Assembly: GCA_017935625.1 (NCBI GenBank) | Contig: JAGBHC010000027.1 | Coordinates: forward strand, 17,913 to 81,912 | Direction: 5' to 3' | Source: Rikenellaceae bacterium | Lineage (GTDB): Bacteria; Bacteroidota; Bacteroidia; Bacteroidales; Rikenellaceae | Length of the DNA stretch: 64,000 nucleotides | In this document: one piece after another, positions 42,365-62,560 of the stretch | Layout of the letters: each line of letters begins with the position of its first letter | How positions within the stretch are numbered: position 1 is the stretch's first letter | The notes under the pieces: model-generated | Database searches by the model: none | Told to the model about the DNA's origin: nothing | What the model saw: the letters and a program-made list of their open reading frames with translations, nothing else | Program-made: the position numbers and the translations under genes

Positions 42365-42410
42365 GCTAAAGCAACGTGCAAAAACTTAAATTCAAAAACG
42401 GACAAGAACT

Positions 42411-43919: not shown

Positions 43920-43949
43920 CCGTCCGAACGGAACAACGAAAAACGAGAG

Positions 43950-44660
43950 GTGCGCCCGCCCGGGTGCGCCTCTCGTTTTCTTTCCGCACCCTCCTCCCGC
44001 CTGTTCCCTGCATCCGCTCTCCTTTCATCGGTCATCCCCCTTCACCATCCACCCTCTTTCCATCGACCGCACCATGCCCCTTTGTCAATTTCCGCTCCAT
44101 CGGCCGCACCCTCTTTCATCGTCCACTTCTCTATCCACCGACCCTTCCCCACATCCACCCTCTTCCCATCGGCTGGCCCGTACCTCTTTATTCGTCTCCC
44201 TCCAATCGCTCACCAGCCCTTCTCCATCTGCTCTCTTGTTATCAGCCGTCCCCCACCCCGTCACCCCCAGCTTTCCATCGACCGGCCCATATCTCTTTAT
44301 CCGTCTCCTCTCCATCGACCTGTCCACTTCTCCGGCCGGCCCCTCCAACATCCGCCCTTTCTCCACCGGCCGCCCCCACTCTTATTGTCCTCTTCCTTTC
44401 CCTGTCCACGCCCCTTTTCCGGAGCGGCTCTCCGTCCGCACCCCGACCGCTCTCCGAACGTTTCCCGCTTCCCTTTCCGAAACCCTTTCCCGAGGCCCCC
44501 TCTCCCGAGGCGAAGCCCCGTTCCGCGGGTTCCCCCTCCTTGCCGGGTCACCCGCAGCAGGGCCCTCTCCGCAGCAGCCGGAACCATTCCGTCCCCACGG
44601 TCTCTGCCCGACGAGAAAAAACCTCCGGCGGAAACCGGACGAAACGCTTTTCCTAAACAA
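43950..44660 (+). repeat. About 700-bp pyrimidine-rich (C/T on the plus strand) low-complexity non-coding tract
   Basis: Degenerate reiteration of ctttccatcgaccg / ccctctttcat / tccaccg motifs, with few purines. The ORFs across it are Pro/Ser/Leu low-complexity in all frames. Confidence 0.85.
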
Positions 44661-44891
44661 ATGAAAAATTGCACTAAAAATTCAGGAATCCTGCACAGAA
44701 CGCACTCAACGGCACATTTTCGACCGAAACTATCATTATTAAGGCAATTTAGACTACAAATGGCTTGTTAAAATGTAAGCAAAAATGACAAAAACAGTTA
44801 TAATTATTAATCAACTTTCCCCAATATTACAAAAAGACCGCAACGCGGCAAAAAAAATTTATTTTCCTCTTTAACGAAATTTTTTAATGAA

Positions 44892-44899
44892 TACATTTG
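44892..44899 (+). promoter_or_regulatory. -7 box (TACATTTG) upstream of the TonB-dependent receptor operon
   Basis: Perfect TAnnTTTG in an AT-rich stretch, about 260 nt upstream of the ATG at 45160. Confidence 0.4.
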
Positions 44900-45159
44900 C
44901 CGATACCCTCCAGAATGGTCTGGAAGGCACATTCGGCATTTCGGAACACCGATTTTTTTCGTAATAGCCCCCGCCGGAACGAGTCCCGCCCGATGCGCCG
45001 CAAAGGTCCTCCGAACACCCCCGAAGAGGGGATGGCAGTTCCGACAAATACCGCAAAGTGGCGATTGTCGCCCGGAAACCGACAAACTACCTTTGCCAAC
45101 CGAAACAGGAAACGAAACGATAACAATAGATGAAGAATTCACTTTAAACGACAACGCCT

Positions 45160-48015
45160 ATGAAAAATTTCGCACTCTCAAGTTTGTTTACGGCTGCGGT
45201 ACTCTGCCTCTGGACGGCAGCGCCGGCCCAAAACAAGGCGACGGTAAACATCAAGGGGCATGTGGTCGCTTACCCCGAAAACCAGAAAGAGGGGAAAGAG
45301 GCCGTACCGTTCGCAGTTGTGCTGCTGCCCGACCTCAATGTCGCCGCGACGACCGATTCCGAAGGAGCGTTCGAACTCAAGAAACTCGCTCCCGATACTT
45401 ATAAAGTACAGGTCTCCTCGCTGGGTTACGAAACCCTCGATACCACCATCCTCGTATCCGCCGCAAAGACGGAATACGATTTCGTACTCCGCCAGTCGAA
45501 CTTCCGCATGGAGGAGGTCGTGGTGACGGCCCGCACTTCGAAGGCGGGTGCCTCGACCGCTTCGGTCATCTCCAAGGCGGCCATGGAGCACATGCAGGCC
45601 ACTTCGCTTTCGGATATCATGTCGCTCATGCCGGGCGGTTCGACCACCCGTCCCGACCTGCAGGGCGTATCGACCGCTTCGGTGCGCGGCGGAAGCAGCC
45701 TCGGCACGGCGGTCATCATGGACGGTTCGCCGCTCTCCAACAACGCCAACATGCAGATGCTGTCGGGTGCGATGGGTGCCTCTTCGACAAAAACCGGAGC
45801 AGTCACTCCGTCCAGCGGCGTGGACCTGCGTACCATCACCACCGATAACATCGAGAGCATCGAGGTAATCCGCGGCGTGGCTCCCGTCGAGTACGGCGAC
45901 ATCACCTCCGGCGCCATCATCGTCAATTCCAAGGCCGGACGCCAGCCGCTGACCGTCAAGCTCAACATCAACCCCAATGTCTACTCGGTATCGGCCACCC
46001 AGGGTTTCGCTCTGGGCAAGAAGGCCGGCAACATCAACTACGGCGCCGACTACGCATACAGTATGGCCGACCCCCGCGAGGGATACGACTTCTACCAGCG
46101 CGTCACCGGCCGCATGGGCTACACCAACACCTTCGGCCGCCTGTACACCAACACCTCGCTGAGCATGCTGTGGACCAAAGACAAGGGCGAACCCAACCCC
46201 GACGACTCGCAGGATAAGGAGACCTCCAATCAGCGCGACTGGGGCCTGCGCTTCAACACCAACGGAACCTACAACGTGAACAACGGCTGGTTCAAGAACA
46301 TCCAGTACAACGTGTCGTTCGGATACACCAACCGCAAGAGCTTCTACGAGAACGAAGCCACCAACGCCGACGTTCCCTACTCCTACTCCAAGACCGACGG
46401 CACCGTGCTTTCGAGCTACCCCGGCGGACATATCTACGACGACCAGGGCAACGAAATCACCAACTTCGGCACTTCGCCCAACGGCATTTTCCGTGCCTGG
46501 ATGCTGCCCGCCACCTATACCTACAACTACAACCTCTACGGCAAGGAGCTCAACACTTTCGTCAAGGTGAAAGCCAACTTCGCAGGCAAGCTGGGGGCAA
46601 CGCACCACCGCATGGTCGTGGGCGTCGATTTCAAGAGCGACGGCAACCTGGGCCGCGGCAAGGTCTTCGACCTGGACAATCCGCCCTACCGAAACGTAAG
46701 CTACACCTTCGGCACCCAGCGCGAACGCGCGTTCAAGGACATTCCGTTCGTCAATCAGTTCGGCGCGTTCTTCGAGGAGAATTTCCGCGCCACCATCCTG
46801 GGACGCGAACTGAACATCGCAGCGGGCGTGCGTTACGACCACACGCTGGATTTCGGCGGAGGATTCTCCCCGCGCGTGAACGTGGCCTATGAGATTCTGC
46901 CCAAGAAACTGAGCGTGCATGCCGCCTACGGTATCACCCGCAAGGCGCCCACCCTGGCCTATCTCTATCCCGACGACGCCTACTTCGATATCCTGAACTT
47001 CAACAACGCCTCCTCTTCGAAGGTGCCCGACGCACAGAAGATGCAGCTGGTGACCACCCGCGTCTTCGATGCCAAGAACTACGACCTGAAGATGGCCCGT
47101 CAGGACAAATACGAAATCGGTCTGAACGCCCACATCGGCAAGATGAGCTTCTCGGTGGTGGCCTACTACGACGAGATGCTCAACGGCTACCGGTTCGACA
47201 AGACGCCCGACACCTTCAAGTCGGTGGACCTCATCGAATACAACGCCACCTACCCCACCGACGGGACGAGCGCTCCGATTCTGACCCAGAAGGCCAGCAA
47301 CAAATACCTGCTGGAGTACACCACGGCCACCAACAACAGCGCCTATACGCGTCAGGGAGTCGAGTTCGACTTCAACTTCGGCCGAATCGACGCCATCCGC
47401 ACCTCGTTCATCCTCAACGGCAACATCTACACCCACAAGTCGTGGAACCGGGGTTACCTGTTCTACAACCGGGTCAAGACCAACGACTACTCCCAGTATC
47501 CCGATATGGGCGTATTCAACAGCAAAGACGCATACGGAGTCGGCTATACCGAGAACTTCATCACCAACCTCATCGTAACCCACAACATCCCCAAAATCGG
47601 ATTCGTGATTACGGCGACCGCCAACGTGAACTGGCGGCACAAGAGCTGGGATACCTACGCAGAGGACGATATCGTGCCCATCGCCTACATTTCGCGTCTG
47701 GACGGCAAGATGTACGACTTCGACAAATCGTGGGCAGACCCCTCGTCGGCCCGCTACGAGGAGTTCCGCTACCTGCTGCGCGACGAAGCGGTGGACCCGC
47801 TGCGCAGACTCCACGAAAAGGCCTATTCGCCCATACTCTGCATGAACCTGAACATCACCAAGCAGTTCGGCGACATGTTCGACGTGTCGTTCTTCGCCAA
47901 CAACATGTTCCGGAGCACCCCGGTTCACACTTCGAGCATCAACCCCAGTCACCACACCAGACGGAACGCCAATCTCTTCTTCTTCGGATTGCAGATAAAC
48001 GCGAGAATCAAATAA
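45160..48015 (+). CDS. TonB-dependent receptor (non-SusC type) with a CarboxypepD_reg-like N-domain
   Basis: 951 aa with a signal peptide. ATVNIKGHVV...TDSEGAFELKKLAPDTYKVQVSSLGYE, plug region (EEVVVTAR...SVISKAAMEHMQATSLSDIMSLMPG...IESIEVIRG), and a long beta-barrel. Confidence 0.9.
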   Translation: MKNFALSSLFTAAVLCLWTAAPAQNKATVNIKGHVVAYPENQKEGKEAVPFAVVLLPDLNVAATTDSEGAFELKKLAPDTYKVQVSSLGYETLDTTILVSAAKTEYDFVLRQSNFRMEEVVVTARTSKAGASTASVISKAAMEHMQATSLSDIMSLMPGGSTTRPDLQGVSTASVRGGSSLGTAVIMDGSPLSNNANMQMLSGAMGASSTKTGAVTPSSGVDLRTITTDNIESIEVIRGVAPVEYGDITSGAIIVNSKAGRQPLTVKLNINPNVYSVSATQGFALGKKAGNINYGADYAYSMADPREGYDFYQRVTGRMGYTNTFGRLYTNTSLSMLWTKDKGEPNPDDSQDKETSNQRDWGLRFNTNGTYNVNNGWFKNIQYNVSFGYTNRKSFYENEATNADVPYSYSKTDGTVLSSYPGGHIYDDQGNEITNFGTSPNGIFRAWMLPATYTYNYNLYGKELNTFVKVKANFAGKLGATHHRMVVGVDFKSDGNLGRGKVFDLDNPPYRNVSYTFGTQRERAFKDIPFVNQFGAFFEENFRATILGRELNIAAGVRYDHTLDFGGGFSPRVNVAYEILPKKLSVHAAYGITRKAPTLAYLYPDDAYFDILNFNNASSSKVPDAQKMQLVTTRVFDAKNYDLKMARQDKYEIGLNAHIGKMSFSVVAYYDEMLNGYRFDKTPDTFKSVDLIEYNATYPTDGTSAPILTQKASNKYLLEYTTATNNSAYTRQGVEFDFNFGRIDAIRTSFILNGNIYTHKSWNRGYLFYNRVKTNDYSQYPDMGVFNSKDAYGVGYTENFITNLIVTHNIPKIGFVITATANVNWRHKSWDTYAEDDIVPIAYISRLDGKMYDFDKSWADPSSARYEEFRYLLRDEAVDPLRRLHEKAYSPILCMNLNITKQFGDMFDVSFFANNMFRSTPVHTSSINPSHHTRRNANLFFFGLQINARIK

Positions 48016-48034
48016 CCAAAACCGAAACAAGCGT

Positions 48035-49303
48035 ATGAAAAATTACCTCAAAATAGCATTCAGCATCTCATCCGCCGCAGCGCTCTGTTCCTGCGTCGGC
48101 ATGATGGACGACGCACAGAACGTCCCCGTCATCGAGCCCATCACCGTCTCCTACAAGGTCAGCGCGGCCACCGGGTTCATTCCCAAGGGCGGCATCGTGG
48201 ACCCCGACCCCTCGTTCTCGACACAGGGCGTGACGGTCTCCTTCCTGGAGAGCGCGACGGGTGCCGTGACCACCGGAGTGACCGACGCCGACTGCGTGGC
48301 CACCGTGGAACTCATCCCCGGCGACTACACCATTTCGGTCACCGGCAAAGTCGAGAACGACGGCACGGAGTACTACCTCAACGGCTCCATCAATTCGGTT
48401 TCGCTCGTCAAGGACATCAGCAAGCAGGAGGCAATGGCCAGCTCCGGACTGGTGGTGCGGCCCGCCAAAGTGGGTTCGCTCTGCATCTCCGAAATCTACT
48501 ACTGCGGCATCGCACCCTACTACTTCCGCGACCAGACCTACCAAATCTACAACAACGGCAACCAGGTGGAGTATCTCGACGGACTGTGCTTCGCCCAGCT
48601 CCATCCCAACATCGCCAGCGCCACCTCGGTTCCGCCCGTATGGCCCGACGAAGAGGGTGAGAACAACTACGTCTACGGACTGATGGTATGGCAATTCCCC
48701 GGCTCGGGACAGGAGTATCCCCTGCAGCCCGGCGAATCGGTGGTGGTCGTACAGGAGGCCCGCGACCACCGGGAGAACAACCCCGCCTCGTTCGACAACT
48801 CGATGGCCGACTGGGAGTGCTGGACCGGAAACGTACAGCGCGACAACCCCGACGTGGAGAACATGCCGCTGCTCTATGCCCAGTCGCTCAACAAACTGCA
48901 GTGGCTGACCTCGGTTTTCGGCGCCGCATTCTGCATCTACCGCGCCGACGACGGCACCGTGCTCGACGAAGCCTACTACAAGGACAAGAACAACACGCAG
49001 ACCGAGGTGAACAAGAGCAGCCGCTACGCCCGAATCCCCGCCTCCTACATTCTGGACGGCGTGGAGCTGATGCCCAACATGGACATCCTCGACAAGAAGC
49101 GCATTCCCGGATTCGTGGATGCCGGAGCCGCTTCGGTGGGCGATACCTACTGCGGCAAGGTGGTGGCCCGCAAAGTGGTGGGAACCCGCCCCGACGGCAC
49201 TCCCATCTTCTCCGACACCAACAACTCGACCGACGACTTCGAAGTGCTCGATTCGCCGATGATTCGCCGTTACGGACAGAAAGCACCCGCATGGAGCAAA
49301 TAG
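48035..49303 (+). CDS. Lipoprotein: N-terminal Ig-like region plus a lamin-tail(LTD)-like domain. I recall such proteins being annotated DUF4876.
   Basis: 422 aa with lipobox AALCSC. LCISEIYYCG...YQIYNNGNQVEYLDGLCFAQL resembles the LTD core (ISEi....E.velyN.g...vdL.G). Lies 19 bp after the receptor gene. Confidence 0.6.
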   Translation: MKNYLKIAFSISSAAALCSCVGMMDDAQNVPVIEPITVSYKVSAATGFIPKGGIVDPDPSFSTQGVTVSFLESATGAVTTGVTDADCVATVELIPGDYTISVTGKVENDGTEYYLNGSINSVSLVKDISKQEAMASSGLVVRPAKVGSLCISEIYYCGIAPYYFRDQTYQIYNNGNQVEYLDGLCFAQLHPNIASATSVPPVWPDEEGENNYVYGLMVWQFPGSGQEYPLQPGESVVVVQEARDHRENNPASFDNSMADWECWTGNVQRDNPDVENMPLLYAQSLNKLQWLTSVFGAAFCIYRADDGTVLDEAYYKDKNNTQTEVNKSSRYARIPASYILDGVELMPNMDILDKKRIPGFVDAGAASVGDTYCGKVVARKVVGTRPDGTPIFSDTNNSTDDFEVLDSPMIRRYGQKAPAWSK

Positions 49304-49334
49304 CCACTCGAATGCCTTTAACTAAAACAGAGCA

Positions 49335-50942
49335 ATGACAATGAAGAAAAACACATACTACAAGGCAGCGGGCTGCTTATCGCTGGCGATGGCTGCCGTA
49401 ATGCCCGCATCGGCCCAGAACACCACCACCGCTTCGGTCGAGAGGCAGAAGCTGGAGAACATCTGGGTGAACAACACCGACAACGCCGCAGCCGGCGTAA
49501 TCGACGCCCCCTCCCGTTACAGTCTCAGCGACCTGAACTTCGGCATGACCAAAGGCGACTTCAAACGCGTACAGCAGGGCAAGGACAACAACTCCGTGGG
49601 ATTCCACACCGAAGGCGGCGGCATCTACGAGAAGATGGGCGGCATGTACCTCTGGGGCGAATTCTCCTACTCCAGAGACCGCATCAAGGGCGCCCGCTTC
49701 AACGCCTCGCTCATCGACCCGCTGCGCGGCATGCCCTTCCTGCTGGCCGACAGCACCGCCAGCAAGTGGATTAACCAGGACTACTCGATGCGCATGAAGG
49801 TGGCTTTCCCCAAACTCTTCGACTGCCTGACCCTCGGCGTGGGAGCCTCCTACCAGAATGCGCAGGGAGCCAAGCAGGTGGACCCCCGTCCCCTGATGCG
49901 GCTCTCCAAAATCGGAGTGACCCCGTCGGCCGTGGTGGAAATCGGCAAACACAACTTCCTGGGCGCCCACTTCGACTACTACAACCGGCGCGAAGACGGC
50001 AACCCCACCAACACCAACAACCGCGTCAATCAGGCGGGATGGGACTTCGTGGCGCCCGGATTCTTCCAGACCGGCGAATTCGGTTCCTTCAGCAGCCTCA
50101 GTTCCAAGCGCTTCTACAACGCCAACGCCATGGGCGGCGGAGTGCAGTACGGTTTCAAGAACGACCGGCTCAACCTGCTCGTCTCGGGCAGCTACATGCA
50201 GAAAGTGGAGGACGTGGACAACCAGTACAGCGGCGAATCGACCGCCTCCATCCGTAAAATGATAGGCACCGTGAAGGAAGAGCTCTGGAACGGCAAACTG
50301 GTGGCCAACTACACCTTCAACTCGGGGAACATCCTGGCCCTGAACATCGGCTACACCGACAAGAGCATCGACGGCATCGAGTATCTCCAGACCTATGACA
50401 ACTCCTTCGACGTGCAGGCCTGGATTATCAACGCCAAGTTCACCCGCTCGAACTTCTCGACCAAGCAGACCGACGTGAAACTCGACTACATGGTCACCGA
50501 CGACGGCAACAGCTACAAGTGGTGGATGGGCGCCCAGTACACCAAGCTCACCGACGGATACGTCTACTACCAGCCCCGCTCGACGCAGGACGTCGAAACC
50601 GCCGTGCTCGGTGCGTTCGTCTCGCGCAACATCCGCCTGTGCGACCGCCACGCGCTGACCCTCACCGTAAACGGAGGCTATTCGACCAACCGCAGCGGCG
50701 AACTCGACTACCACGGTTACAAGGCCGACAACGTCGGATTCACCATGCTCACGCTCAAGGACTTCGAGTTCCTGTGCACCGACTACGCCAAATTCGGCGG
50801 CGAGGTGACCTACACCTTCTCGGGATTCAAGAATCCGTCGATGTCGCTCTACGTAACCGCCGACTTCGACTACTACAAGCCCGACTCGGAAATCTTCTCG
50901 AAACGCACCTTCACCAATTTCAAAGTCGGTGTCGCATTCTAA
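49335..50942 (+). CDS. Outer-membrane beta-barrel protein. I recall such neighbours being annotated DUF6850.
   Basis: 535 aa. Signal peptide ending ASAQ, alternating-hydrophobic strand pattern throughout, and a C-terminal ...FKVGVAF with terminal Phe. Confidence 0.65.
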   Translation: MTMKKNTYYKAAGCLSLAMAAVMPASAQNTTTASVERQKLENIWVNNTDNAAAGVIDAPSRYSLSDLNFGMTKGDFKRVQQGKDNNSVGFHTEGGGIYEKMGGMYLWGEFSYSRDRIKGARFNASLIDPLRGMPFLLADSTASKWINQDYSMRMKVAFPKLFDCLTLGVGASYQNAQGAKQVDPRPLMRLSKIGVTPSAVVEIGKHNFLGAHFDYYNRREDGNPTNTNNRVNQAGWDFVAPGFFQTGEFGSFSSLSSKRFYNANAMGGGVQYGFKNDRLNLLVSGSYMQKVEDVDNQYSGESTASIRKMIGTVKEELWNGKLVANYTFNSGNILALNIGYTDKSIDGIEYLQTYDNSFDVQAWIINAKFTRSNFSTKQTDVKLDYMVTDDGNSYKWWMGAQYTKLTDGYVYYQPRSTQDVETAVLGAFVSRNIRLCDRHALTLTVNGGYSTNRSGELDYHGYKADNVGFTMLTLKDFEFLCTDYAKFGGEVTYTFSGFKNPSMSLYVTADFDYYKPDSEIFSKRTFTNFKVGVAF

Positions 50943-50965
50943 AAACACCCATACCAATCGGATAG

Positions 50966-51004
50966 CGATAGGACTACCCCCTCACGGGGCCGGTAGTCCT
51001 ATCG
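50966..51004 (+). terminator. Strong hairpin between the barrel gene and paralogue 1 (partial terminator, processing site or attenuator)
   Basis: cgataggactacc / ggtagtcctatcg 13-bp stem, extendable by cc/gg, followed only by gtattt. Confidence 0.4.
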
Positions 51005-51038
51005 GTATTTAACTCAAACCACAAAAACATGTCGGCTT

Positions 51039-53222
51039 ATGAACCGTAAAACATTTTTCATTCCGGTGTTTCTGACCGTCGCAACGGCTTTCGGCCCCGC
51101 TGCGGCCCGCGACATCGAGAAACCCTCCGTGAAAGGCAAAACCAGTTTCGCCGTGGTGGTGGACAAAACCACGCTCGAACGATGCCGTACCCAAATCGAC
51201 GCCTACAAGCGCACCGTCGAAAGCGAGGGCCTGCCCACCTACATCATCTCGGACGACTGGACCTCGCCCGAACAGATAAAAGAGATATTGCAGGAGCTCC
51301 ACCTCTCCGACCGGCTCGAAGGAGCGTTCCTGGTGGGAGACGTTCCCATCGCCATGGTCACCAAGGCCCAGCACATGACCTCGGCCTTCAAGATGGACGA
51401 ACGCAAATTCCCGCTGCGCGAGGTGTCGGTTCCCACCGACCGCTTCTACGACGACTTCGACCTGGAGTTCGAGCCCATCCGGGATTCGACCGACGGCCTG
51501 ATGCACTTCTACCGCCTCAGCCCCACCTCGCCCCAGTACATCGAATGCGACATCTACACCGGCCGCATCAAGGCCCAGGAGAGCAACGGCGACAAATATC
51601 GCCAGATAAGCGACTACCTGGCCAAGGCCGTGGCGGCGCACAAGGAGCACAACCCGTTCGACACCTTCGTCTCCTACACGGGACACGGCTCCTACTCGGA
51701 CTGCATCACCGCCTGGCGGGCCGAACAGCAGATTCTGCAGGAGCAGTTCCCGGGCGTATTCACCCGCACCAACACCGCCAAGTTCCTGCGCTACTCGATG
51801 GAGCCCTACATGAAAGAGAGCGTCATCCGCGAGCTGCGCCGTCCGGACCTCGACTTCATGGTCTTCCACGAGCACGGCATGCCCGAACGCCAGTACCTCT
51901 CGGCCATTCCCCAGCAGAGCGACCTCGACCAGACCGAGTTCATCAAGACCTCCCTGCGCGAACGGATGAGACGGAGCTCGGCCGCCTCACGCGCTTCGGC
52001 CCTCAGAATCGCCGAAGAGTGGGGACTCGACTCGACCTGGTATGCCGGAGCCGACGACCCGCAGCTGATTGCGCTCGACTCGCTGGCCGACCTGAAGACC
52101 GGCATCATCGTGGAAGAGGTGAACGACATCGCTCCCAACGCACGGATGGTCATCTTCGACGCCTGCTATAACGGCGACTACCGCGAAGGAGACTTCATCG
52201 CCGGCAAATACATCTTCTCCCCGGGCAAGTGCGTGGCCGCTTTCGCCAACAGCGTGAACGTGCTGCAGGACAAGTCGGCCTTCGACCTGCTCGGACTGCT
52301 CGGCGAGGGCATCCGGCTGGGCAACTGGGCCAAGCACATCAACATCCTCGAATCGCACATCATCGGTGACCCCACCTACCACTTCACCGCCCGCCAGGGC
52401 GCCGAGGACATCAACGCCGCGATGGCCATCGACGAGAGCGGCTACTGGAAAGGCCGGCTCGACGACCCCAATCCCGAAATCCAGAACGTGGCCATGATGA
52501 AGCTCGTGCGCAACGACTATCCCGGCATTTCGGACATCCTCTACGGCAAAATGTGCTCGTCGCCCTATGCCATCGTGCGCTACAACGCGCTGGTGCAGCT
52601 CGAGAAACTCAACGACGAGAACTACCGCAAGGCGCTCATCCGCGGCACGGACGACAACTTCGAGTTCATCCGCCGAATCAGCACCCACCGCATGGGCATG
52701 TGCGGAGACGACCGCTTCCTGCCCTATCTGGTGGCAGCCTACGTAAACGACAACTACGCCGCCCGCATGACCTTCAACATCACTTCGGCCCTGCTCTGCT
52801 TCGACAAACACTCCGCCCTGAAGGCCATCGACGAGTGGTTCGCCGGCAAGAAGTTCTACAACGCCGAAAAATACAGACAGCGCCTCGTCGCCCTGGTGTC
52901 GGACGACCCTGCGGGCGAATCGCTCGAGGAGATTAAAGACCCCTCGGCCTCGCTCTCCTACCGCATCGCACGAATCAGCTTCCTGCGCAACCGGCCCTAC
53001 CACCAGATTACCGACGGACTGCTGGAGGTGCTCGCCGACCGGAACGCCGACCCGCAGCTGCGCCATCGAATCATCGAATCGCTGGCCTGGTACCGCCTCT
53101 CGGCCGAGCGGCCCAAAATCCTCGCCGCACTGGAGAAGATGCTGGCCGAGAAAGATTTCCCCACTCCCGAAACCGAACGCGAACTGACCCGTGCCTGCAC
53201 CCGTCTGTGCTCTGCCAAATAG
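51039..53222 (+). CDS. Secreted gingipain-fold (peptidase C25-like) domain protein with C-terminal HEAT-like repeats, paralogue 1 of 3
   Basis: 727 aa with a Sec signal (...GPAAARD). LVGDVPI, PTDRFYDDFD, IYTGRI, SYTGHGSYSD, FHEHG, VIFDACYNGDY and IIGDPTYHF follow the order of C25 motifs. The C-terminal roughly 260 aa are helical repeats. Confidence 0.65.
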   Translation: MNRKTFFIPVFLTVATAFGPAAARDIEKPSVKGKTSFAVVVDKTTLERCRTQIDAYKRTVESEGLPTYIISDDWTSPEQIKEILQELHLSDRLEGAFLVGDVPIAMVTKAQHMTSAFKMDERKFPLREVSVPTDRFYDDFDLEFEPIRDSTDGLMHFYRLSPTSPQYIECDIYTGRIKAQESNGDKYRQISDYLAKAVAAHKEHNPFDTFVSYTGHGSYSDCITAWRAEQQILQEQFPGVFTRTNTAKFLRYSMEPYMKESVIRELRRPDLDFMVFHEHGMPERQYLSAIPQQSDLDQTEFIKTSLRERMRRSSAASRASALRIAEEWGLDSTWYAGADDPQLIALDSLADLKTGIIVEEVNDIAPNARMVIFDACYNGDYREGDFIAGKYIFSPGKCVAAFANSVNVLQDKSAFDLLGLLGEGIRLGNWAKHINILESHIIGDPTYHFTARQGAEDINAAMAIDESGYWKGRLDDPNPEIQNVAMMKLVRNDYPGISDILYGKMCSSPYAIVRYNALVQLEKLNDENYRKALIRGTDDNFEFIRRISTHRMGMCGDDRFLPYLVAAYVNDNYAARMTFNITSALLCFDKHSALKAIDEWFAGKKFYNAEKYRQRLVALVSDDPAGESLEEIKDPSASLSYRIARISFLRNRPYHQITDGLLEVLADRNADPQLRHRIIESLAWYRLSAERPKILAALEKMLAEKDFPTPETERELTRACTRLCSAK

Positions 53223-53249
53223 TTTCACCTTTATAAAAGTTATCAAACG

Positions 53250-55427
53250 ATGAAAAGATTATCCATACTCATAACCGTCATGCTCTGCGTCTCGACCCTC
53301 GCAGCGCAGGTAAAGGTGACAAAACCCCTGAGCAAACAGAGCAACTCGTTCGCCATCGTCACCGACCAGACCACCTTCGACAAAGTCGGCCGGCAGCTGC
53401 TGGCCTATCGCGATGCGCTGGAGGCCGACGGACTCTCGACCTACATCGTCAGCGGCCGCTGGGAGAACCCCGACCAGGTGCGCGACCAAATCGGCAAACT
53501 CTACGCCCGGAGCCGCAACCTGGAGGGAATCGTGCTGGTGGGCGACATCCCCTATGTGATGGTGCGCAACGCCCAGCACATGACCACGGCCTTCAAGATG
53601 GACGAGGAGAAGTTCCCCATCGACCAGTCGTCGGTGGCTTCGGACCGCTTCTACGACGACCTGCACCTGAGCTTCGAGTTCCTGGAGCGCGACTCGCTGG
53701 AGCCCCTCAGATTCTACTACAAACTCTCCGAGAACTCGCCCCAGCAGCTGGCGCCCAACTTCTATTCGGGCCGTATATTCTACCCCCCGCAGCTGGGCGG
53801 CGACAAGTACGAGGCCATCGCCCGCTTTCTGGAAAAGGCGGTGGAGGCCAAGCGCAATCCCGACCCGCTGGACCACATCGTCACCTTCGCCGGACACGGT
53901 TACAACAGCGACTGCCTGCTGGTATGGCAGGACGAGAAGATTGCCATGAAGGAGAACTTCCCCTTCACCGGCAAAACCAACCTCTCGGCCAAGCACCTCA
54001 ACTTCCGCATGGAGCAGTACATGAAGTATAAGCTCTTCGACGAGCTGCAGCGTCCGGAGGTGGACGTGTTCCTCTTCAACGAGCACGGCTCCATCGACAA
54101 GCAGCACATCTCGGGAGGCTCCTCCATCGAGACCGTGCAGGACCGTCTGGCAATGCTTCGCGCATCCATCGAGATGCAGCTGCTCTTCACCCCCAAAGGC
54201 AAGCGTGAGGAGGCCCGCCGGCAAATCATGCAGGAGATGGGCCTCGGCGAGAAGTTCTTCGAAGCCGGAACCGGAGAGGAAGAGACGGACGGGGAGGCCA
54301 CCGACGAGAATATCATCAGCCTCGACGACCTGAAGGGATTCAACCCCCAGCCCCGCTTCGTCATGTTCAACGCCTGCTACAACGGCTCGTTCCACCGGCC
54401 GGGCAATATCGCCGGCTACTACATCTTCGGAGAGGGCCGCACCATCGCCACACAGGGCAACACGGTGAACGTCCTGCAGGACAAGTGGACCTACGAGATG
54501 GTGGGCCTCATTTCGCACGGCGTGCGCATCGGCGAATACAACCGTCAGATTGCCACCCTGGAGGGCCACATCGTGGGTGACCCCACGTTCCACTTCGCCG
54601 ACAGCGAGGGATGCACCCTGCGGCGCGACATCGTAGCCAAGGGCGGCGACGCGGCCTACTGGCGCACGCTGCTCGACGCCCCCTATGCCGACATCCGCTC
54701 CATCGCCCTGCGCAAGCTGACCGACCTGGGAGCCATCTCCTCGGCCGAAATAGTGGCCCGAATGAAGGAGTCGCCCTTCGCCACCACCCGCATGGAGTGC
54801 CTCAAACTGCTGAGCCGCTTCCGCGACGACGCCTACGTGGAGGGCATCCGCCTGGGACTCTACGACAGCTATGAACTCACCCGCCGCAACGCAGCCGACT
54901 ACGCCTGGCGGGCGGGCGACCCGCGGCTGGTTCCCGCCATCATGGACGTACTGGTCAGATATCCCGAATCGCAACGCGTGAACTACCTGTTGCAGAAGGC
55001 CGTGAACCTCTACCCCGCCGACGGGCTCATCGCCGAGCTCGAGCGCATGAAACCCACGCTCACCGACGCCGACCCCGAACAGGCCGCAGCCCGCATCCGC
55101 GAAATGATAGAGGAGCAGCGGTCGGCCAAGGAGAAGACCATGCAGGCGCTGCTCGACAAGCAGGCCCCGCTGGCCCGGCGCATCCAGTCGGCACGCTACG
55201 TCCGCAACTACACCTATCACGAATACGTACCCCAGCTGCTGGCGCTGGTCGGCGACTCCGCCGAAGAGCTCAGCCTGCGCGTGAACGTGGCCGAAGCGCT
55301 GGGATGGTTCAACAAATCGGTCTCCTACGATGAAATCGCCCGGGGATGCCGGCAGCTGCTCGAAAACCCGGCCCTCGAACCGCAGCTGCGCAAGGAGCTC
55401 GTCCAGACCCTGAACCGGCTCAAATAA
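53250..55427 (+). CDS. Secreted gingipain-fold/HEAT-like repeat protein, paralogue 2 of 3
   Basis: 725 aa with signal ...STLAAQ. LVGDIPY, ASDRFYDDLH, FYSGRI, TFAGHGYNSD, FNEHG, VMFNACYNGSF and IVGDPTFHF. C-terminal repeats (DIRSIALRKL..., LSLRVNVAEALGWF...). Confidence 0.65.
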   Translation: MKRLSILITVMLCVSTLAAQVKVTKPLSKQSNSFAIVTDQTTFDKVGRQLLAYRDALEADGLSTYIVSGRWENPDQVRDQIGKLYARSRNLEGIVLVGDIPYVMVRNAQHMTTAFKMDEEKFPIDQSSVASDRFYDDLHLSFEFLERDSLEPLRFYYKLSENSPQQLAPNFYSGRIFYPPQLGGDKYEAIARFLEKAVEAKRNPDPLDHIVTFAGHGYNSDCLLVWQDEKIAMKENFPFTGKTNLSAKHLNFRMEQYMKYKLFDELQRPEVDVFLFNEHGSIDKQHISGGSSIETVQDRLAMLRASIEMQLLFTPKGKREEARRQIMQEMGLGEKFFEAGTGEEETDGEATDENIISLDDLKGFNPQPRFVMFNACYNGSFHRPGNIAGYYIFGEGRTIATQGNTVNVLQDKWTYEMVGLISHGVRIGEYNRQIATLEGHIVGDPTFHFADSEGCTLRRDIVAKGGDAAYWRTLLDAPYADIRSIALRKLTDLGAISSAEIVARMKESPFATTRMECLKLLSRFRDDAYVEGIRLGLYDSYELTRRNAADYAWRAGDPRLVPAIMDVLVRYPESQRVNYLLQKAVNLYPADGLIAELERMKPTLTDADPEQAAARIREMIEEQRSAKEKTMQALLDKQAPLARRIQSARYVRNYTYHEYVPQLLALVGDSAEELSLRVNVAEALGWFNKSVSYDEIARGCRQLLENPALEPQLRKELVQTLNRLK

Positions 55428-55457
55428 CCCGCTGAAAGACAACACAAACTTCCAACC

Positions 55458-57650
55458 ATGACAAACAAAATCAAACTCATCGCTCTTTCGCTGCTCCTGT
55501 TGCCCGTCACGATGCTGGCATCGGCTCAGCGCAAAACGGTCGCTCCGACCGTCAAGTCGCCGACCTCGTTCGTCATCGTCATCGACGAACAGAGCTACGC
55601 CAAACTTCCCGCACAGGTGGAGGCCTACCGCCGCGCCATCGAAAACGACGGCCTGGCCGCCTGGATTGTGGCCGACCGCTGGCAGTCGCCCGAACAGGTC
55701 AAGTCGCTGCTCGTGAAGATGGCCTCGGACAAGAAGATGCCCATCGAGGGTGCCGTGTTCGTGGGCGACATTCCCATCGCCATGCTGCGCGACGCCCAGC
55801 ACCTCTCGTCGGCCTTCAAGATGGACCAGAACCGCGACTGGAAAGAGTCGTCGATTCCCTCCGACCGCTTCTACGACGATTTCGACCTCACCTTCGATTT
55901 CATCCGTCAGGACGAGGAGAAGCCCGAATTCTTCTACTACTCGCTGCGCAGCGACTCGCCCCAGTACGTCAATCAGGATATCTACACCGGCCGCATCCGC
56001 CCCTTCGGCGAGGACAAATACGCCCAGCTGGCCAAATACCTCGACAAAGTGGTGGCGGCGCACGCCGAAGCCAATCCGCTGGACAACCTGCTGGTGTTCC
56101 GCGGACACGGCTATAACTCCGAGGCCAAAGAGGCCTGGTCGGGCGAGCAGATATCGCTGCGCGAACAGCTGCCCACACTCTTCACCACGGGCAATACCGT
56201 GCGTTTCTACGACTTCGAGACCCGCTTCCCGATGAAGCCCTACCTGCTGGAGCACCTCCGCAATCCGGAGCTCGACGTGGCCCTCTGCCACCATCACGGC
56301 TCGGAAGAGATGCAATATCTCAACGGATACCAGACCGTGTCGGGAGCCCAGGCCAGCGCCGAAAACATCAAGCGTTTCCTGCGCAGCAAGGTGGTCGGCT
56401 CGAAAGACCCCGAAGGCAACCTGAAGAAATACATGGAGTACATGGACGTGCCCGCCTCGTGGATAGACACCTCCGACTCGATGCGGCTGGCGGACGAAGC
56501 CTACAACAGGTCGCTGGACATCTATGCCGAGGATATCTACGCAGCGGCTCCCAACGTGCGGTTCATCATGTTCGACGCCTGCTACAACGGCTCGTTCCAC
56601 GTGGGCAACTGCATCTCCAACGCCTATCTGTTCAGCGACGGCAAGACCGTCGTAACCCAGGGCAACACCGTGAACAGCCTCCAGGACAAGCATCCCGACG
56701 CCTTCGTGGGACTGCTGGCCAGCGGACTGCGCATCGGCCAGTGGGGACGCCACGCCCAGCAGTTCATCGAATCGCACATCGTGGGCGACCCCACCTACCG
56801 CTTCGCCAACACCGCCACCCCCGCCCTGGACATCAACCGCGCCATCGCCGTGGAGGGCAAGAACGACAAATTCTGGCTCGAGGCCCTCTCCTTCGACTCG
56901 GCCGACTGGCAGGCCATGGCCGTGCGCAAACTCGCCACGAACAACTACCCCGGCATCGAACGGCTGCTGATGGACACCTATCTTTCGTCGCCCTACGGCG
57001 GCGTGCGTCTGGAGTGCGTGAAGATGCTCGCCCGCAAGGACTCGCCCCTGTTCCTCGAAATGCTGGCACTGGGCATGAACGACAGCTACGAGCTGGTGCG
57101 CCGTCTCTGCACCGAGTACATCGGCATGTGCGGCAACGACGAACTGCTCCCCGTGCTGGTCAAAGCCCTCATCGAGGACAACCTCTCCAACCGCGTCAAT
57201 TACCACGCACGCAGCAACCTCACCTTCTTCTCTCCCGACAAGGCCCGCGCCGAGGTGGAGAAGCAGCTTGCGGCGCACACCCAGCTGATGAATCCCGATG
57301 CCGACGCGAAAAGCCTCTGCGGGGTCATCGAGAGCGGTGACAACCGCGTGAAGGGCAACATGGAAGAGCTCCTGGGCAGCGAATTACCCCCCCGCGAACG
57401 CAAATTCGCCCTCACCACCCTGCGCAACTACCACTACCACTACATCGTGCCGGAGGTGATACGCTTCGCCGAGGACACCACCCAGCCGCTCGACCTGCGC
57501 GTGACCGCCGTCGAGGCACTGGGATGGTTCCACTCCTCCTACCAGAAAGAGGCTATCAACGCCATGTGCGACCGTCTCGTGGCTTCGGGAGCACCCGAAG
57601 CGCTCGTCGCCGAGGCCCGCAAGACCCGTTCGAGACTCAAGCCCTTCTAA
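55458..57650 (+). CDS. Secreted gingipain-fold/HEAT-like repeat protein, paralogue 3 of 3
   Basis: 730 aa with signal ...MLASAQ. FVGDIPI, PSDRFYDDFD, IYTGRI, VFRGHGYNSE, CHHHG, IMFDACYNGSF and IVGDPTYRF. C-terminal repeats (LDLRVTAVEALGWF...). Confidence 0.65.
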   Translation: MTNKIKLIALSLLLLPVTMLASAQRKTVAPTVKSPTSFVIVIDEQSYAKLPAQVEAYRRAIENDGLAAWIVADRWQSPEQVKSLLVKMASDKKMPIEGAVFVGDIPIAMLRDAQHLSSAFKMDQNRDWKESSIPSDRFYDDFDLTFDFIRQDEEKPEFFYYSLRSDSPQYVNQDIYTGRIRPFGEDKYAQLAKYLDKVVAAHAEANPLDNLLVFRGHGYNSEAKEAWSGEQISLREQLPTLFTTGNTVRFYDFETRFPMKPYLLEHLRNPELDVALCHHHGSEEMQYLNGYQTVSGAQASAENIKRFLRSKVVGSKDPEGNLKKYMEYMDVPASWIDTSDSMRLADEAYNRSLDIYAEDIYAAAPNVRFIMFDACYNGSFHVGNCISNAYLFSDGKTVVTQGNTVNSLQDKHPDAFVGLLASGLRIGQWGRHAQQFIESHIVGDPTYRFANTATPALDINRAIAVEGKNDKFWLEALSFDSADWQAMAVRKLATNNYPGIERLLMDTYLSSPYGGVRLECVKMLARKDSPLFLEMLALGMNDSYELVRRLCTEYIGMCGNDELLPVLVKALIEDNLSNRVNYHARSNLTFFSPDKARAEVEKQLAAHTQLMNPDADAKSLCGVIESGDNRVKGNMEELLGSELPPRERKFALTTLRNYHYHYIVPEVIRFAEDTTQPLDLRVTAVEALGWFHSSYQKEAINAMCDRLVASGAPEALVAEARKTRSRLKPF

Positions 57651-57679
57651 TCTCCGAAACGGATTTTCCGACCCTCAAT

Positions 57680-57714
57680 CCCCTGCCGAACTTCCATTCG
57701 GCAGGGGATTTTTT
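57680..57714 (+). terminator. Rho-independent terminator closing the six-gene locus
   Basis: cccctgccgaa / ttcggcagggg stem followed by attttttac. Confidence 0.8.
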
Positions 57715-57719
57715 ACGGG

Positions 57720-58035
57720 GAAAAGAATAGGGCCGCACCCCCGCCGAGAGAAAGCAGCCCCCGAGAGAATGAAGACCGCAGCTCCCGTCAGGAAAGAACA
57801 GGCTGCACCATGAAAAGGGTAAAGAGCTGCGCCCCTGCTCCCCCAAAAACCACCTACCCCTCAAAAGGCTACCCTCCAAGAGAAAGGCCACGACTACTGC
57901 CAAGAAAAGAGCTGCCCCAAAGAATGGTAAGGGCACGACTCCTGTCGAGAAAAGAGCTCCTCCATGAAAATGGCCACAGTTTCTGTCGAGAAAAGAGTAA
58001 GCAGAAACGAGTAAGCCGCCCCTGCAAAAAAGAGA
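57720..58035. repeat. T-poor A/G/C low-complexity intergenic tract
   Basis: Reiterated gagaaag / aaaagagct(g/c)c / aaaggc(c/t)ac motifs. Same flavour as 32870-33300. Confidence 0.7.
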
Positions 58036-58069
58036 AAAAGCCTGTCCGGAAATCCGGACAGGCTTTTTC
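58036..58069. terminator. Bidirectional terminator next to the ThrC-like gene
   Basis: aaaaagcctgtccgga / tccggacaggcttttt perfect stem with A/T runs. Confidence 0.8.
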
Positions 58070-58145: not shown

Positions 58146-59438
58146 CTAAGCGAACAGCGCCTCGACCTTGCTTATCACATCGCTTTCGGAAGGAACCAGC
58201 GGGAATACGCAGCTCGGTTTGAGATACCACAGCTCCTTGCCCTCCTTGAACTTGCGTTCGCCGCCGCCGGTGATGTTGAGCATCACCACTGCCGACTTCT
58301 CGACCTTGCCCTCGCGGACAGCCTTCACCAGCGATGCGGTGGCCACGGCGGCCGCAGGATGGATGTCCACCCCCTCGGTACGCTCGAACAGCTCGGCGGC
58401 CTTGCGGGCCGCAGCGTTGGTCGCCACCAGGATGTCGCCGTCCGTATCCTTCAGGGCATCGTAGAGTCCGCCTGCCAGCCCGTAGGGCGGTTTGCGGTTG
58501 GAGAGCACCTTGGCATCCATAATCTCCACGTCGCGTCGCGCCTTGTCCTCCTCGTAGGGAAGCATCCGGCGCGAATCGGCCCGCCAGGCATCGAACATCG
58601 GCACGAAAGGCGCATTCTGCGACACCATGAGCTTCATCTTGTGGCTGCCGTAACGGCCGTCGCCGATAAGACGCAGGTTGGCCTCCCAGGCGGCGATGGC
58701 TCCGGTGCCGCTGCCCACGGCCTGGAAATAGTAGTCGGGAATGCGGCCGATGGCCGTGGCCGCCGAAAGCACCGTGGTGGACATGCCGTCGCGGCGGGCG
58801 ATGTTCTTGGCGCCCCCCTCGGCATAGAACTTCGGACTCTTGAGGGCCAGGTTGCTCAGATGGATGGCATCGAAATAGTCGCCGCCATGCTGGCAGCAAA
58901 TCAGCTTCACGCACTCCTTCAGCGGCTCCTCGAACCACAGGGCGCCGATGTTGTCCTCGGGAACGCTCAGCAGCAGGGGAATGTCGTTGTCGGAACAAAC
59001 CTTGGCGAACGCACGCGCCGTGTTGCCGGCCGAAGCCACCACCAGCACGCGCTTCTCGCCCTCGCAGGTACGGGCGCACACGGTGTAGGCCTCCGTCTCC
59101 TTGAACGAGCAGGTGGTCATCGCGGCCCCGACGGCCGGATTGTACCCGTTGAAAGTGATATAGAGATTCTCCAGTCCCAGCTCCGCTGCCAGTCCGCGGC
59201 TCTTGTAGGTGACGGGAGCCGACGAACCCTGAAGCATGCGCTTGACGGGCATCCAGTCGCGGAACTTGTACAGTCCCTCGCTGTCGCTCTTGACGTTCAA
59301 CTGTTTGGAAGCATATTCGGCTCGGACCAGCGAAGGACCTTCGCACTCGCAGTCGTCGAGCGTCCAGCCCTCGTCCTGAAAACGGCGGCCGGAAGCCACG
59401 CACAACAGCGTGTACTCTGTGGGGGTAAATTGACTCAT
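58146..59438 (-). CDS. Threonine-synthase-fold PLP enzyme, possibly cysteate synthase
   Basis: 430 aa. PLP-Lys context TTCSFKETEAY and GNTARAF, with a short-ThrC-like layout. The N-terminus is unlike the long Bacteroides ThrC as I remember it. Confidence 0.55.
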   Translation of the reverse strand: MSQFTPTEYTLLCVASGRRFQDEGWTLDDCECEGPSLVRAEYASKQLNVKSDSEGLYKFRDWMPVKRMLQGSSAPVTYKSRGLAAELGLENLYITFNGYNPAVGAAMTTCSFKETEAYTVCARTCEGEKRVLVVASAGNTARAFAKVCSDNDIPLLLSVPEDNIGALWFEEPLKECVKLICCQHGGDYFDAIHLSNLALKSPKFYAEGGAKNIARRDGMSTTVLSAATAIGRIPDYYFQAVGSGTGAIAAWEANLRLIGDGRYGSHKMKLMVSQNAPFVPMFDAWRADSRRMLPYEEDKARRDVEIMDAKVLSNRKPPYGLAGGLYDALKDTDGDILVATNAAARKAAELFERTEGVDIHPAAAVATASLVKAVREGKVEKSAVVMLNITGGGERKFKEGKELWYLKPSCVFPLVPSESDVISKVEALFA

Positions 59439-59466
59439 TGCGTATTGTTCTGATTTTTAAGACCCA

Positions 59467-59474
59467 CAAAGGTA
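59467..59474 (-). promoter_or_regulatory. -7 box (TACCTTTG on the minus strand) for the ThrC-like gene
   Basis: The plus strand reads caaaggta, about 29 nt upstream of the ATG at 59438. Confidence 0.45.
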
Positions 59475-59588
59475 GCCCATTTTCACCGGGCTCACAATAG
59501 GTATTTATACGTATTAATAAGCCCCGCCCGGTAAGTCAAACAGTCGGTAAACCATCGTCATCGGGACCCTGAGCGCAGGCAAAAGGGG

Positions 59589-59830
59589 GCAAGAAGATGC
59601 CGGGAGAGCGTGTGCGAGAAGATGCAAGAGAGAAAGCTGAGAGTGCGAAGGGCTGTGTGCGAGAAGATACAAAAGAGAAAGCAGTGAGTGCGGGGGGCTG
59701 TGTGCGAGAATATGCAAAAGAGGAAGCTGAGAGTGCGAGGGGCTGTGTGCGAGAAGATGCAAAAGAGGGAGCGAGAAGATGCAGGGAGAGCGTGTGCGAG
59801 AAGATGCAAAAGAGACAAGAGAGGGCGGGG
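59589..59830. repeat. Purine-rich tandem array with a 45-47 bp period, about 5 units
   Basis: gtgtgcgagaagatgcaaaagagRaagctgagagtgcgaRgggct begins at 59610, 59655, 59700, 59745 and 59792, with a partial unit from about 59589. Confidence 0.9.
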
Positions 59831-59845
59831 CGTTTCGCCCCGCCC
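59823..59845 (-). terminator. Terminator after nspC
   Basis: gggcggggcg / cgccccgccc stem 12 nt past the nspC stop, with a T-rich run on the minus strand. Confidence 0.6.
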
Positions 59846-59856
59846 GGAACGGCGCC

Positions 59857-62433: not shown

Positions 62434-62560
62434 TGTCTCTGAATGTTTATGTTTTCGTTGTTTGGATTCTCTGCCCGTGCACCCCGCCCCCGGGCAGAAA
62501 GCAGCGTGCACCGAGTTGCAAAAATAATACTTTTTCCGGTTAAAACAACCTCTGTTTCGA

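Follow-up and report, generated by a model that had tools for sequence, protein, structure and literature searches.

What does a locus do that encodes a TonB-dependent transporter and, shortly downstream on the same strand, three exported paralogues with a predicted gingipain-like fold? Such a locus of six genes (g1-g6) lies on the forward strand of a 64,000-nucleotide stretch of a Rikenellaceae genome (assembly GCA_017935625.1, contig JAGBHC010000027.1, positions 17,913 to 81,912), which is referred to here as the window. The answer we put forward, and to which we give a little less than an even chance, is that the locus encodes a predicted protease-associated outer-membrane import system, similar to Fus/FusC but with clan-CD enzymes. 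An initial annotation, made from the DNA alone, had described six genes on one strand separated by short gaps, and both the coordinates and the gaps (19, 31, 96, 27 and 30 nucleotides (nt) from g1 to g6) were reproduced by open reading frame (ORF) calls. The genes, and the His/Cys dyads of the last three, are as follows (aa, amino acids).

45160-48015, + strand: g1, 951 aa; non-SusC-type TonB-dependent transporter (TBDT) with signal peptide, CarboxypepD_reg-like domain, Plug and barrel
48035-49303, + strand: g2, 422 aa; DUF4876 lipoprotein, predicted surface 'lid' of g1
49335-50942, + strand: g3, 535 aa; DUF6850 outer-membrane beta-barrel protein with signal peptide and C-terminal ...VAF
51039-53222, + strand: g4, 727 aa; signal peptide, C25-like clan-CD domain (~aa 25-455, predicted) and HEAT-repeat domain (~aa 465-727)
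51873-51875 and 52164-52166, + strand: His279 and Cys376 of g4
53250-55427, + strand: g5, 725 aa; paralogue of g4 (34% identity) with the same architecture
54084-54086 and 54375-54377, + strand: His279 and Cys376 of g5
55458-57650, + strand: g6, 730 aa; paralogue of g4 (36% identity) with the same architecture
56295-56297 and 56580-56582, + strand: His280 and Cys375 of g6

Domain searches identify g1 as a TonB-dependent transporter, g2 as a DUF4876 lipoprotein and g3 as a DUF6850 barrel. In Pfam, g1 matched CarbopepD_reg_2 (E 1.1e-15) and, at residues 131-251, Plug (E 2.4e-14). The ~700 residues after the Plug gave no match to the Pfam barrel model at E <= 0.01 and weak FepA-type barrel matches at residues 535-599 in NCBIfam. 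An N-terminal Plug followed by a large beta-barrel is the arrangement that defines a TBDT and is the one assigned to g1, and the 951-aa TonB-dependent receptor announced as the first gene is indeed there. The NCBIfam similarities of g1 are to FepA-type siderophore receptors only, all of them weak, with no SusC-family model among the matches, and no relative was found by sequence among solved transporters. With no SusD domain in the six genes and no SusC-family match in g1, the locus does not qualify as a SusC/SusD polysaccharide utilization locus.

The second protein carries a DUF4876 domain (Pfam, E 1.9e-44, 152 bits) and a lipobox (..LCSC) with acidic residues a few positions past the Cys, and it matches the DUF4876 structure PDB 4q1z ('putative lipoprotein') with an E-value of 4e-68; we take 4q1z to be BT_1938. 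Domain, lipobox and a same-strand gene 19 nt past the TBDT are what is expected of a DUF4876 'lid' lipoprotein, and the adjacency of receptor and lid is kept in every complete locus except one. The initial annotation had called g2 an LTD-like lipoprotein: the lipoprotein part stands on the lipobox and DUF4876, whereas no LTD domain was detected by Pfam at E <= 0.01 and the resemblance to LTD is at motif level only. The third gene was correctly read as a barrel with a terminal Phe. It belongs to DUF6850 (PF21012; E 5.3e-90, 303 bits against a cut-off of 27), and a homologue is named 'DUF6850 family outer membrane beta-barrel protein' in one source; a sequence search gave no solved relative of g3.

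The remaining proteins share 34-36% identity along their entire length and are anciently diverged paralogues. In sequence, each starts with a typical SPI signal peptide and has no lipobox, and a lipobox-like pattern occurs in just 5 of 210 family members; this set of 210 sequences, from 84 loci, was also used to score conservation of the dyad and the HEAT domain. Pfam found no Por_Secre_tail or other C-terminal sorting domain family of the type IX secretion system (T9SS) in g4-g6, which thus do not qualify as T9SS cargo, and none of the six locus proteins carries such a domain, in line with what had been stated for the locus. As a Sec signal peptide is their only export signal, g4-g6 are presumably periplasmic rather than secreted. 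The C-terminal ~260 residues are HEAT repeats, with HEAT_2 (Pfam) above cut-off in g4 and g6 and just under it in g5; designed alphaRep proteins are matched as well, at E-values as low as 1e-14. Residues R514, D539, E542, R546, R576, N651, W684 and R722 of this domain are invariant among the 210 members and would suit a conserved binding groove. The earlier description of three paralogues of ~727 aa with a Sec signal peptide and ~260 aa of helical repeats is thereby borne out. Homologues of g4, where named at all, are called 'HEAT repeat domain-containing protein' or 'hypothetical' in databases. In some cases a single protein of ~1400-1435 aa combines two paralogues (L071:9896-14203; P0252, P0253), which fits the idea that the paralogues act together physically.

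As judged from sequence and a structural model, the N-terminal domain of the paralogues is a divergent clan-CD domain with C25 as its nearest family. The Pfam model Peptidase_C25 (PF01364; a hidden Markov model (HMM) of 374 positions with a gathering cut-off of 23 bits) was matched below the cut-off by g4 (15.8 bits, E 0.0084, residues 76-199 on HMM positions 45-147), and neither g5 nor g6 matched it. A Prevotella orthologue of g6 (L054:14274-15653) passes with 28.7 bits (E 1e-6, HMM positions 66-371 of 374), and C25 homology is therefore supported by transitivity. A further member matches the region of the C25 Cys motif below threshold (HMM positions 261-311, E 8e-4); this match and that of g4 fall at colinear positions, and C25 is the sole Pfam family that recurs among 33 diverse members. 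A profile of 33 N-domains found nothing meaningful among PDB sequences. With an HMM built from 210 N-domains, the top 41 contained 16 of 27 genuine C25 proteins, compared with 10 of 540 shuffles, and none was individually significant. Membership of C25 was considered for the window proteins and is not claimed, given the sub-cut-off Pfam match and non-significant hhalign and HMM scores.

The fold points in the same direction. AlphaFold2 modelled aa 25-462 of g4 as a two-lobed domain with a predicted local distance difference test (pLDDT) of 90.1 and a predicted template-modelling score (pTM) of 0.90, and aa 200-455 with a pLDDT of 88.4. A Foldseek search of PDB with the whole 438-residue N-domain was uninformative, returning CHAT and generic two-lobe periplasmic-binding-protein/LacI folds at template-modelling (TM) scores < 0.3 and no gingipain in the top 50, so a search by the second lobe alone was needed. 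With this lobe (aa 200-455) the top list was dominated by clan-CD peptidases, which make up most of the top 20. The best matches were SAVED-CHAT (probability 0.97-1.00, TM up to 0.50), and others were caspases-4, -11, -6, -3, -7 and -9, MARTX cysteine protease domains, gingipain K (Kgp) at rank 9 (TM 0.41) and a Bacteroides C11 peptidase at rank 31; E-values for the clan-CD matches were modest (5e-4 to 0.1).

In clan CD the His follows one central strand and the Cys the next, each preceded by hydrophobic residues. The g4 model has this caspase-like arrangement, with His-Gly after the third and Ala-Cys after the fourth strand of the second lobe: strand FMVFH leads into His279-Gly280 and, past an insertion, strand MVIFD into Ala375-Cys376 (in model numbering, strand 74-78 then H-G and strand 171-175 then A-C). 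Both His-Gly and Ala-Cys are invariant in 210/210 members, and the position aligned with Glu152 of RgpB (His216) is variable (H/E/D/S/N/G). His and Cys are separated by 95-97 residues in g4-g6 versus 33 in RgpB, the extra segment being mostly helical in the model. With the RgpB sequence, which was confirmed against PDB 1cvr, hhalign paired IFDACYNGDY with IFDVACVNGDF and GDPT with GDPS, placing Cys376 on Cys244 at low probability. The equivalence of His279 and His211 (RgpB) comes from strand order and manual alignment, and this pairing was not recovered by hhalign. At low stringency, an end-to-end colinear alignment of 318 columns was obtained (E 0.013) that pairs LEGAFLVGD with LTYVLLVGD, SDRFY with SDQVY, and IYTGRI with VFIGRF. 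The ~420-aa clan-CD/C25-like domain proposed in the initial annotation is thus upheld, as a prediction, by the fold search, the conserved motifs with their invariant dyad and an orthologue above the cut-off, although the window proteins themselves fall below it.

Is this set of genes a unit? Co-conservation in related genomes had been set beforehand as a test. The six genes pass it across Bacteroidales: a receptor-lid-barrel trio stands beside two or three paralogues in 55/56 loci with complete flanks, which rules out chance adjacency of the six genes. In a letter code in which T is the receptor, L the lid, B the barrel and H the HEAT/clan-CD paralogue, the gene orders are:

T-L-B-H-H: 23/56 loci
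H-T-L-B-H-H: 18/56 loci
T-L-B-H-H-H: 13/56 loci
T-L-B-H with two H genes fused: 1/56 loci
five H genes, no T-L-B within 10 kb: 1/56 loci

The fetched Bacteroides loci show the T-L-B-H-H-H order, and the most distant DUF6850 homologues found (26-30% identity) are still located within T-L-B-H-H loci. Past the barrel, the paralogue types follow one another in a conserved order among loci, and the triplication is therefore old, which suggests non-redundant subunits. A word-indexed search with g4 gave 1355 homologues at E <= 0.001 among the 8000 scored candidates sharing most words, and an exhaustive search gave 535 clusters at 50% identity, nearly all of 700-750 aa with few tandem fusions. Relatives occur in at least 569 species (GTDB representative genomes), and those listed include Rikenellaceae, Alistipes, Odoribacter, Butyricimonas, Bacteroides, Phocaeicola, Prevotella, Muribaculaceae, Proteiniphilum and Prolixibacteraceae. 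The five tandem paralogues without T-L-B belong to one Bacteroidales genome (L038:3040-14437) and are preceded by an S9 peptidase gene.

Genes within 10 kb were surveyed in 84 loci, and an M16, S9, S15, S37 or papain-like peptidase gene was present in 42 of them (adjacent and sharing the same strand in 19), as raw counts across related loci sharing ancestry. A double-domain M16 (pitrilysin-type) peptidase of ~935 aa is encoded inside the Odoribacter splanchnicus operon, in the interval between barrel and paralogues (L002:7096-9915), and another lies 16 nt past the last paralogue in Tidjanibacter (L008:16539-19346); both belong to the enzyme family of FusC, from the ferredoxin import system. 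S9 peptidases are encoded at 19 loci, without preference for one side or strand of the module, with only 32-54% identity to a reference S9 sequence, and S15 X-Pro dipeptidyl peptidase and S37/S28 peptidase genes are also among the neighbours. In 11 two-paralogue loci (L042, L049, L052, L061, L062, L067, L070, L071, L077, L078 and L081; e.g. L071:14204-15748) a gene for a papain-like protein of ~490-514 aa comes directly next on this strand, often with an overlap of 4-10 nt. The core of the protein matches PDB Lpg2622 (E 1.4e-7), and its C-terminus gave a sub-threshold Pfam HmuY match in 3/3 tested members (20 bits, the cut-off being 27). A profile of this C-terminus matched 8b6a (conserved hypothetical lipoprotein; E 0.0035), HmuY 3h8t (E 0.097) and the haem-binding 6eu8 (E 0.69), and we regard the possible HmuY-like C-terminus as a lead rather than a finding.

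Two lineages (L002:1-4173; L050:2673-7022) have a receptor ~100 aa longer with a gene for a FecR anti-sigma factor before it, and an STN domain was detected in the L002 receptor, which points to trans-envelope signalling control of the module there, though not in the window. When the regions upstream of 67 loci were searched for a conserved operator (e.g. a Fur box), only A/T runs, -7 boxes and start-codon context were enriched. In one Alistipes metagenome-assembled genome, a gene for a PorV-like (T9SS) outer-membrane protein (L025:2744-3664; Pfam PorV, E 2.5e-17) is located directly upstream of the receptor.

Published work has touched on parts of homologous loci. AlphaFold-Multimer places the DUF4876 proteins BT1938 and BT3632 on the outer face of their receptors with an opening of ~20 Å, and BT1939/BT1938 homologues are adjacent in 81 genera (bioRxiv 10.1101/2023.03.17.533168); a B. 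fragilis DUF4876 homologue is surface-exposed. In B. thetaiotaomicron, BT1933-39 were 3.5-7.4-fold up under iron depletion (PMC10434189); the products given for this locus are a transposase, hypothetical proteins, a HEAT repeat protein, a DUF4876 protein and a TonB-dependent receptor (TBDR). PG1019-22 of P. gingivalis, a species whose DUF4876/TBDR genes are strongly induced by iron or haem limitation, were 20.8-214.5-fold up, the DUF4876 gene of this species was ~40-fold down in excess haemin, and PG1019/PG1020 were still termed an uncharacterised transport system as late as 2026. For the barrel, the paralogues, BT1934-37, PG1021/22 and the combination of HEAT, C25 and TonB, nothing relevant was found in the searched literature, within which the architecture is, as had been supposed, unclaimed by any characterised pathway. 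The initial annotation was right about the anatomy of the locus; it overlooked the link to iron limitation (PMC10434189), the published lid prediction for DUF4876 (bioRxiv 10.1101/2023.03.17.533168) and a neighbouring SusC/SusD pair that is described below.

How, then, might the system operate? Receptor-coupled capture and processing of imported cargo, as first proposed for this locus, would fit its context by analogy, with peptidases as recurrent neighbours and Fus/PAIS (protease-associated import system) as a precedent. In such a scheme g2 would cover the extracellular face of g1 as a lid that is partly open and aid substrate capture, as the published AlphaFold-Multimer prediction and the conserved proximity of the genes suggest, and g3 could be an accessory channel or an outer-membrane anchor. 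The paralogues would stay in the periplasm, probably as a hetero-oligomer, where the HEAT domains may hold a polypeptide imported by g1 while the clan-CD domains cut it. General exopeptidases, encoded beside the module in many genomes, would complete the degradation and general inner-membrane transporters would do the rest, so that no dedicated inner-membrane transporter would be needed. To judge from homologous loci, the system would respond to iron or haem shortage, and the cargo may therefore be an iron- or haem-bearing protein or peptide. Given the iron/haem regulation of these loci and the HmuY-like accessory domain, the most attractive candidate cargo would be a protein that bears iron or haem. 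The fuller version of the proposal, a hitherto overlooked protein-piracy machine of gut and oral Bacteroidales in which the lidded transporter and the second barrel import a host, dietary or microbial iron/haem protein and three periplasmic gingipain-fold/HEAT enzymes of a new clan-CD family dismantle it as a hetero-oligomer, is tentative, and we consider it somewhat unlikely.

Several observations weigh against the proposal of import and cleavage. The window proteins themselves remain under the Pfam C25 cut-off and do not satisfy the membership rule of that family, and their sequence similarity to C25 is weak, with an hhalign probability of 10% against RgpB alone and <1% against a 17-member C25 alignment. 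The peptidase-neighbour counts are raw tallies over loci of shared ancestry, the window locus has no adjacent exopeptidase, and the HmuY-like signal is sub-threshold. Transposon mutants of BT1938/BT1939 had no phenotype in 519 conditions, and in the lid study its author makes the case that non-SusC transporters with a lid take small substrates (bioRxiv 10.1101/2023.03.17.533168). Strong iron induction is a property of P. gingivalis PG1019-22, which is tied to the module here by the DUF4876/TBDR genes only, and the induction in B. thetaiotaomicron is modest (3.5-7.4-fold; PMC10434189), a value that also counts against small-molecule iron uptake, the first of the rival readings. In that reading g1/g2 would import haem, porphyrin or a (peptidic) xenosiderophore, and g4-g6 would be periplasmic binding or handling proteins, with the HEAT domain as ligand holder and the Cys/His pair as a site of ligand processing or ligation, and without protein degradation; released iron would enter via general systems such as Feo. 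It draws on the place of DUF4876/TBDR loci in the iron/haem-limitation stimulon of three Bacteroidota, on FecR and STN-type signalling in two lineages, on the weak FepA-type matches as the only NCBIfam similarities of g1, on the small ligands taken by the lid-associated non-SusC transporters characterised so far, and on the HmuY-like motif of an accessory gene. However, no reductase, PepSY, ABC or other partner for handling iron is part of the module, its recurrent neighbours are peptidases rather than iron genes, no Fur-like operator was found upstream of the 67 loci, and a complete peptidase-type dyad is kept in all three paralogues. We consider small-molecule uptake unlikely.

The same paralogues could instead belong to a machine for envelope biogenesis or attachment, acting as C25-like transpeptidases or maturases of envelope proteins (e.g. 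the receptor, the lid or other surface proteins) with the DUF6850 barrel as their outer-membrane partner. PorU, which works with the PorV barrel, is the model for such an arrangement: PorU (6za2) is C25-like and matches RgpB by sequence in a PDB search, barrel and paralogues are always linked, and the PorV-like gene of the Alistipes locus (L025) lies directly upstream of the receptor. This reading gives no role to a Plug-containing TonB-dependent transporter and leaves the neighbouring degradative exopeptidases unexplained, a T9SS C-terminal domain is missing from all six proteins, and to our knowledge Bacteroides lack a T9SS, yet the module is common in them; we hold it to be improbable. Slightly less probable still, in our judgment, is that g4-g6 are pseudo-peptidase scaffolds, in which the caspase-like and HEAT domains serve solely for cargo binding or for docking to the receptor/TonB machinery. 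The variable residue (H/E/D/S/N/G) at the position of RgpB Glu152 would be in keeping with lost activity, and the ~95-residue, mostly helical insertion between His and Cys might occlude the site, but His-Gly/Ala-Cys are invariant in 210/210 members although the three paralogue groups share no more than 34-36% identity with one another, a pattern typical of enzymes that keep their catalysis and not of pseudoenzymes.

The following promoter boxes and hairpins lie around and within the six genes.

44892-44899, + strand: distal promoter box of the Bacteroidota -7 type, TACATTTG, 268 nt before the ATG of g1
45088-45095, + strand: proximal promoter box of the -7 type, TACCTTTG, 72 nt before g1
50960-51010, + strand: g3-g4 spacer hairpin (-33.9 kcal/mol, z -4.9), followed by GUAUUUAAC with no clean U-run
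57677-57716, + strand: intrinsic terminator closing the unit, with a 14-bp stem and 6-nt loop (hairpin 57677-57710), then a U-run

The distal box is the TAnnTTTG box that had been noted ~260 nt upstream; the proximal one had gone unlisted. TAnnTTTG occurs 26 times in the window against 9.2 expected, a number reached in 0/100 shuffles. The hairpin and T-run reported at the end of the locus proved to be an intrinsic terminator (-25.7 to -29.1 kcal/mol, z -5.5), with an equally good fold in 0/200 shuffles. The g3-g4 hairpin occupies much of the 96-nt spacer; standing between the outer-membrane and periplasmic genes, it may act as an attenuator or as a site of RNA processing and might set the ratio of their products. 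Upstream of g1, no riboswitch or leader RNA matched Rfam, even at E <= 1, and the window's only Rfam match at gathering level is a tRNA gene at 33370-33456 (+ strand, 56.4 bits).

Directly upstream of g1, on the + strand (39239-44771), are genes for a SusC-like receptor (1041 aa) and a SusD-like lipoprotein (502 aa), followed by a 273-aa ORF without a Pfam match between this pair and g1. The statement that the locus has no SusD is hence true of the six genes but not of their surroundings, where the SusC/SusD pair (39239-43919) is found on the same strand. A promoter-bearing gap of 388 nt separates the 273-aa ORF from g1. The pair is absent beside the module in homologous loci of other species and genera, and for this reason we treat it as a separate unit. 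On the 3' side, the opposite strand (58146-63586) carries unrelated genes for a pyridoxal phosphate (PLP) enzyme, an ornithine/diaminopimelate (Orn/DAP)-decarboxylase-like protein, a saccharopine-dehydrogenase-like protein and an EamA transporter, a set that may serve polyamine synthesis. These convergent minus-strand genes have a perfect 16-bp terminator hairpin of their own (58034-58069, - strand).

Proteins of the g4-g6 type carry only the label 'HEAT repeat protein' in databases and are thereby mis-described. If the proposed import and cleavage are true, they would constitute a new clan-CD peptidase family, present in at least 569 species and comprising 535 clusters (50% identity), a function would be gained for DUF4876, DUF6850 and the still unannotated N-domain, and 'import, then cleave' would extend from Proteobacteria and M16 to Bacteroidota and caspase-fold enzymes. 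The system would also offer a tractable route to how abundant gut commensals gain iron or amino acids from proteins, with BT1934-39 of B. thetaiotaomicron being genetically accessible. Should the paralogues turn out to be non-proteolytic, a strict His/Cys pair in three ancient paralogues beside a transporter would still need explaining. The module is widespread in important gut taxa, and its receptor/lid part is already in the literature.

The window locus appears to be the counterpart of B. thetaiotaomicron BT1933-39, known as a predicted receptor/lid pair and an iron-responsive transcript. Both have a non-SusC TBDT followed by a DUF4876 lipoprotein (BT1939/BT1938), and a HEAT repeat protein and hypothetical proteins are reported for BT1933-39; published work there consists of structure prediction for receptor and lid and of bulk transcript changes, and leaves the barrel, the three paralogues and the peptidase fold undiscussed. 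The closest functional parallel is Fus/PAIS of Proteobacteria, with the TBDT FusA and the M16 protease FusC, or YddB/PqqL (PMC6071955, PMC6042079, PMC6793856). The two share a TBDT encoded together with a dedicated exported protease (predicted here), a link to iron limitation, and import followed by cleavage, which is proposed here from the genes alone; in Odoribacter and Tidjanibacter, a double-domain M16 peptidase is even encoded inside or next to the module. Yet in place of M16 the window has a predicted clan-CD (C25-like) and HEAT fusion, a type present in 2-3 paralogous copies per locus, and a predicted surface lid lipoprotein and second barrel are added, with neither a FusB-like TonB nor an ABC exporter, in another phylum. 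The locus may work like Fus/PAIS but is not a member, because it has neither an M16 gene nor a FusA/YddB-type receptor; by sequence, g1 has no relative among solved TBDTs.

With the C25 enzymes RgpB, Kgp and PorU, the paralogues share a two-lobed alpha/beta domain in the model and the colinear motifs LVGD..IP, SD..Y, GR[IF], h-h-h-H-G, FD(x)AC.NG[DS]F and GDP[ST]; Kgp is among the fold matches, and one orthologue passes Pfam. They differ from gingipains in having no propeptide, Ig-like domain or T9SS C-terminal domain, and from RgpB in the ~95 rather than 33 residues between His and Cys, the non-conserved equivalent of Glu152 and the C-terminal HEAT domain. The best fold matches, CHAT proteins (e.g. 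SAVED-CHAT, PDB 8tl0), join a clan-CD protease domain to alpha-helical repeats. Separase and CHAT both combine a caspase-fold protease with a helical-repeat domain that binds a substrate or regulator. They are cytoplasmic or nuclear signalling proteases with another domain order, none of them is linked to a transporter, and neither shows sequence similarity to g4-g6 beyond the fold. Finally, RagAB/SusCD importers likewise pair an outer-membrane TonB-dependent barrel with a surface lipoprotein lid, leave the final steps to periplasmic (dipeptidyl) peptidases and have no dedicated inner-membrane partner in the locus. The system described here differs in that g1 is not SusC-type, the lid is DUF4876 instead of SusD/RagB, a DUF6850 barrel is added, and dedicated endopeptidase-like paralogues are encoded within the operon itself.

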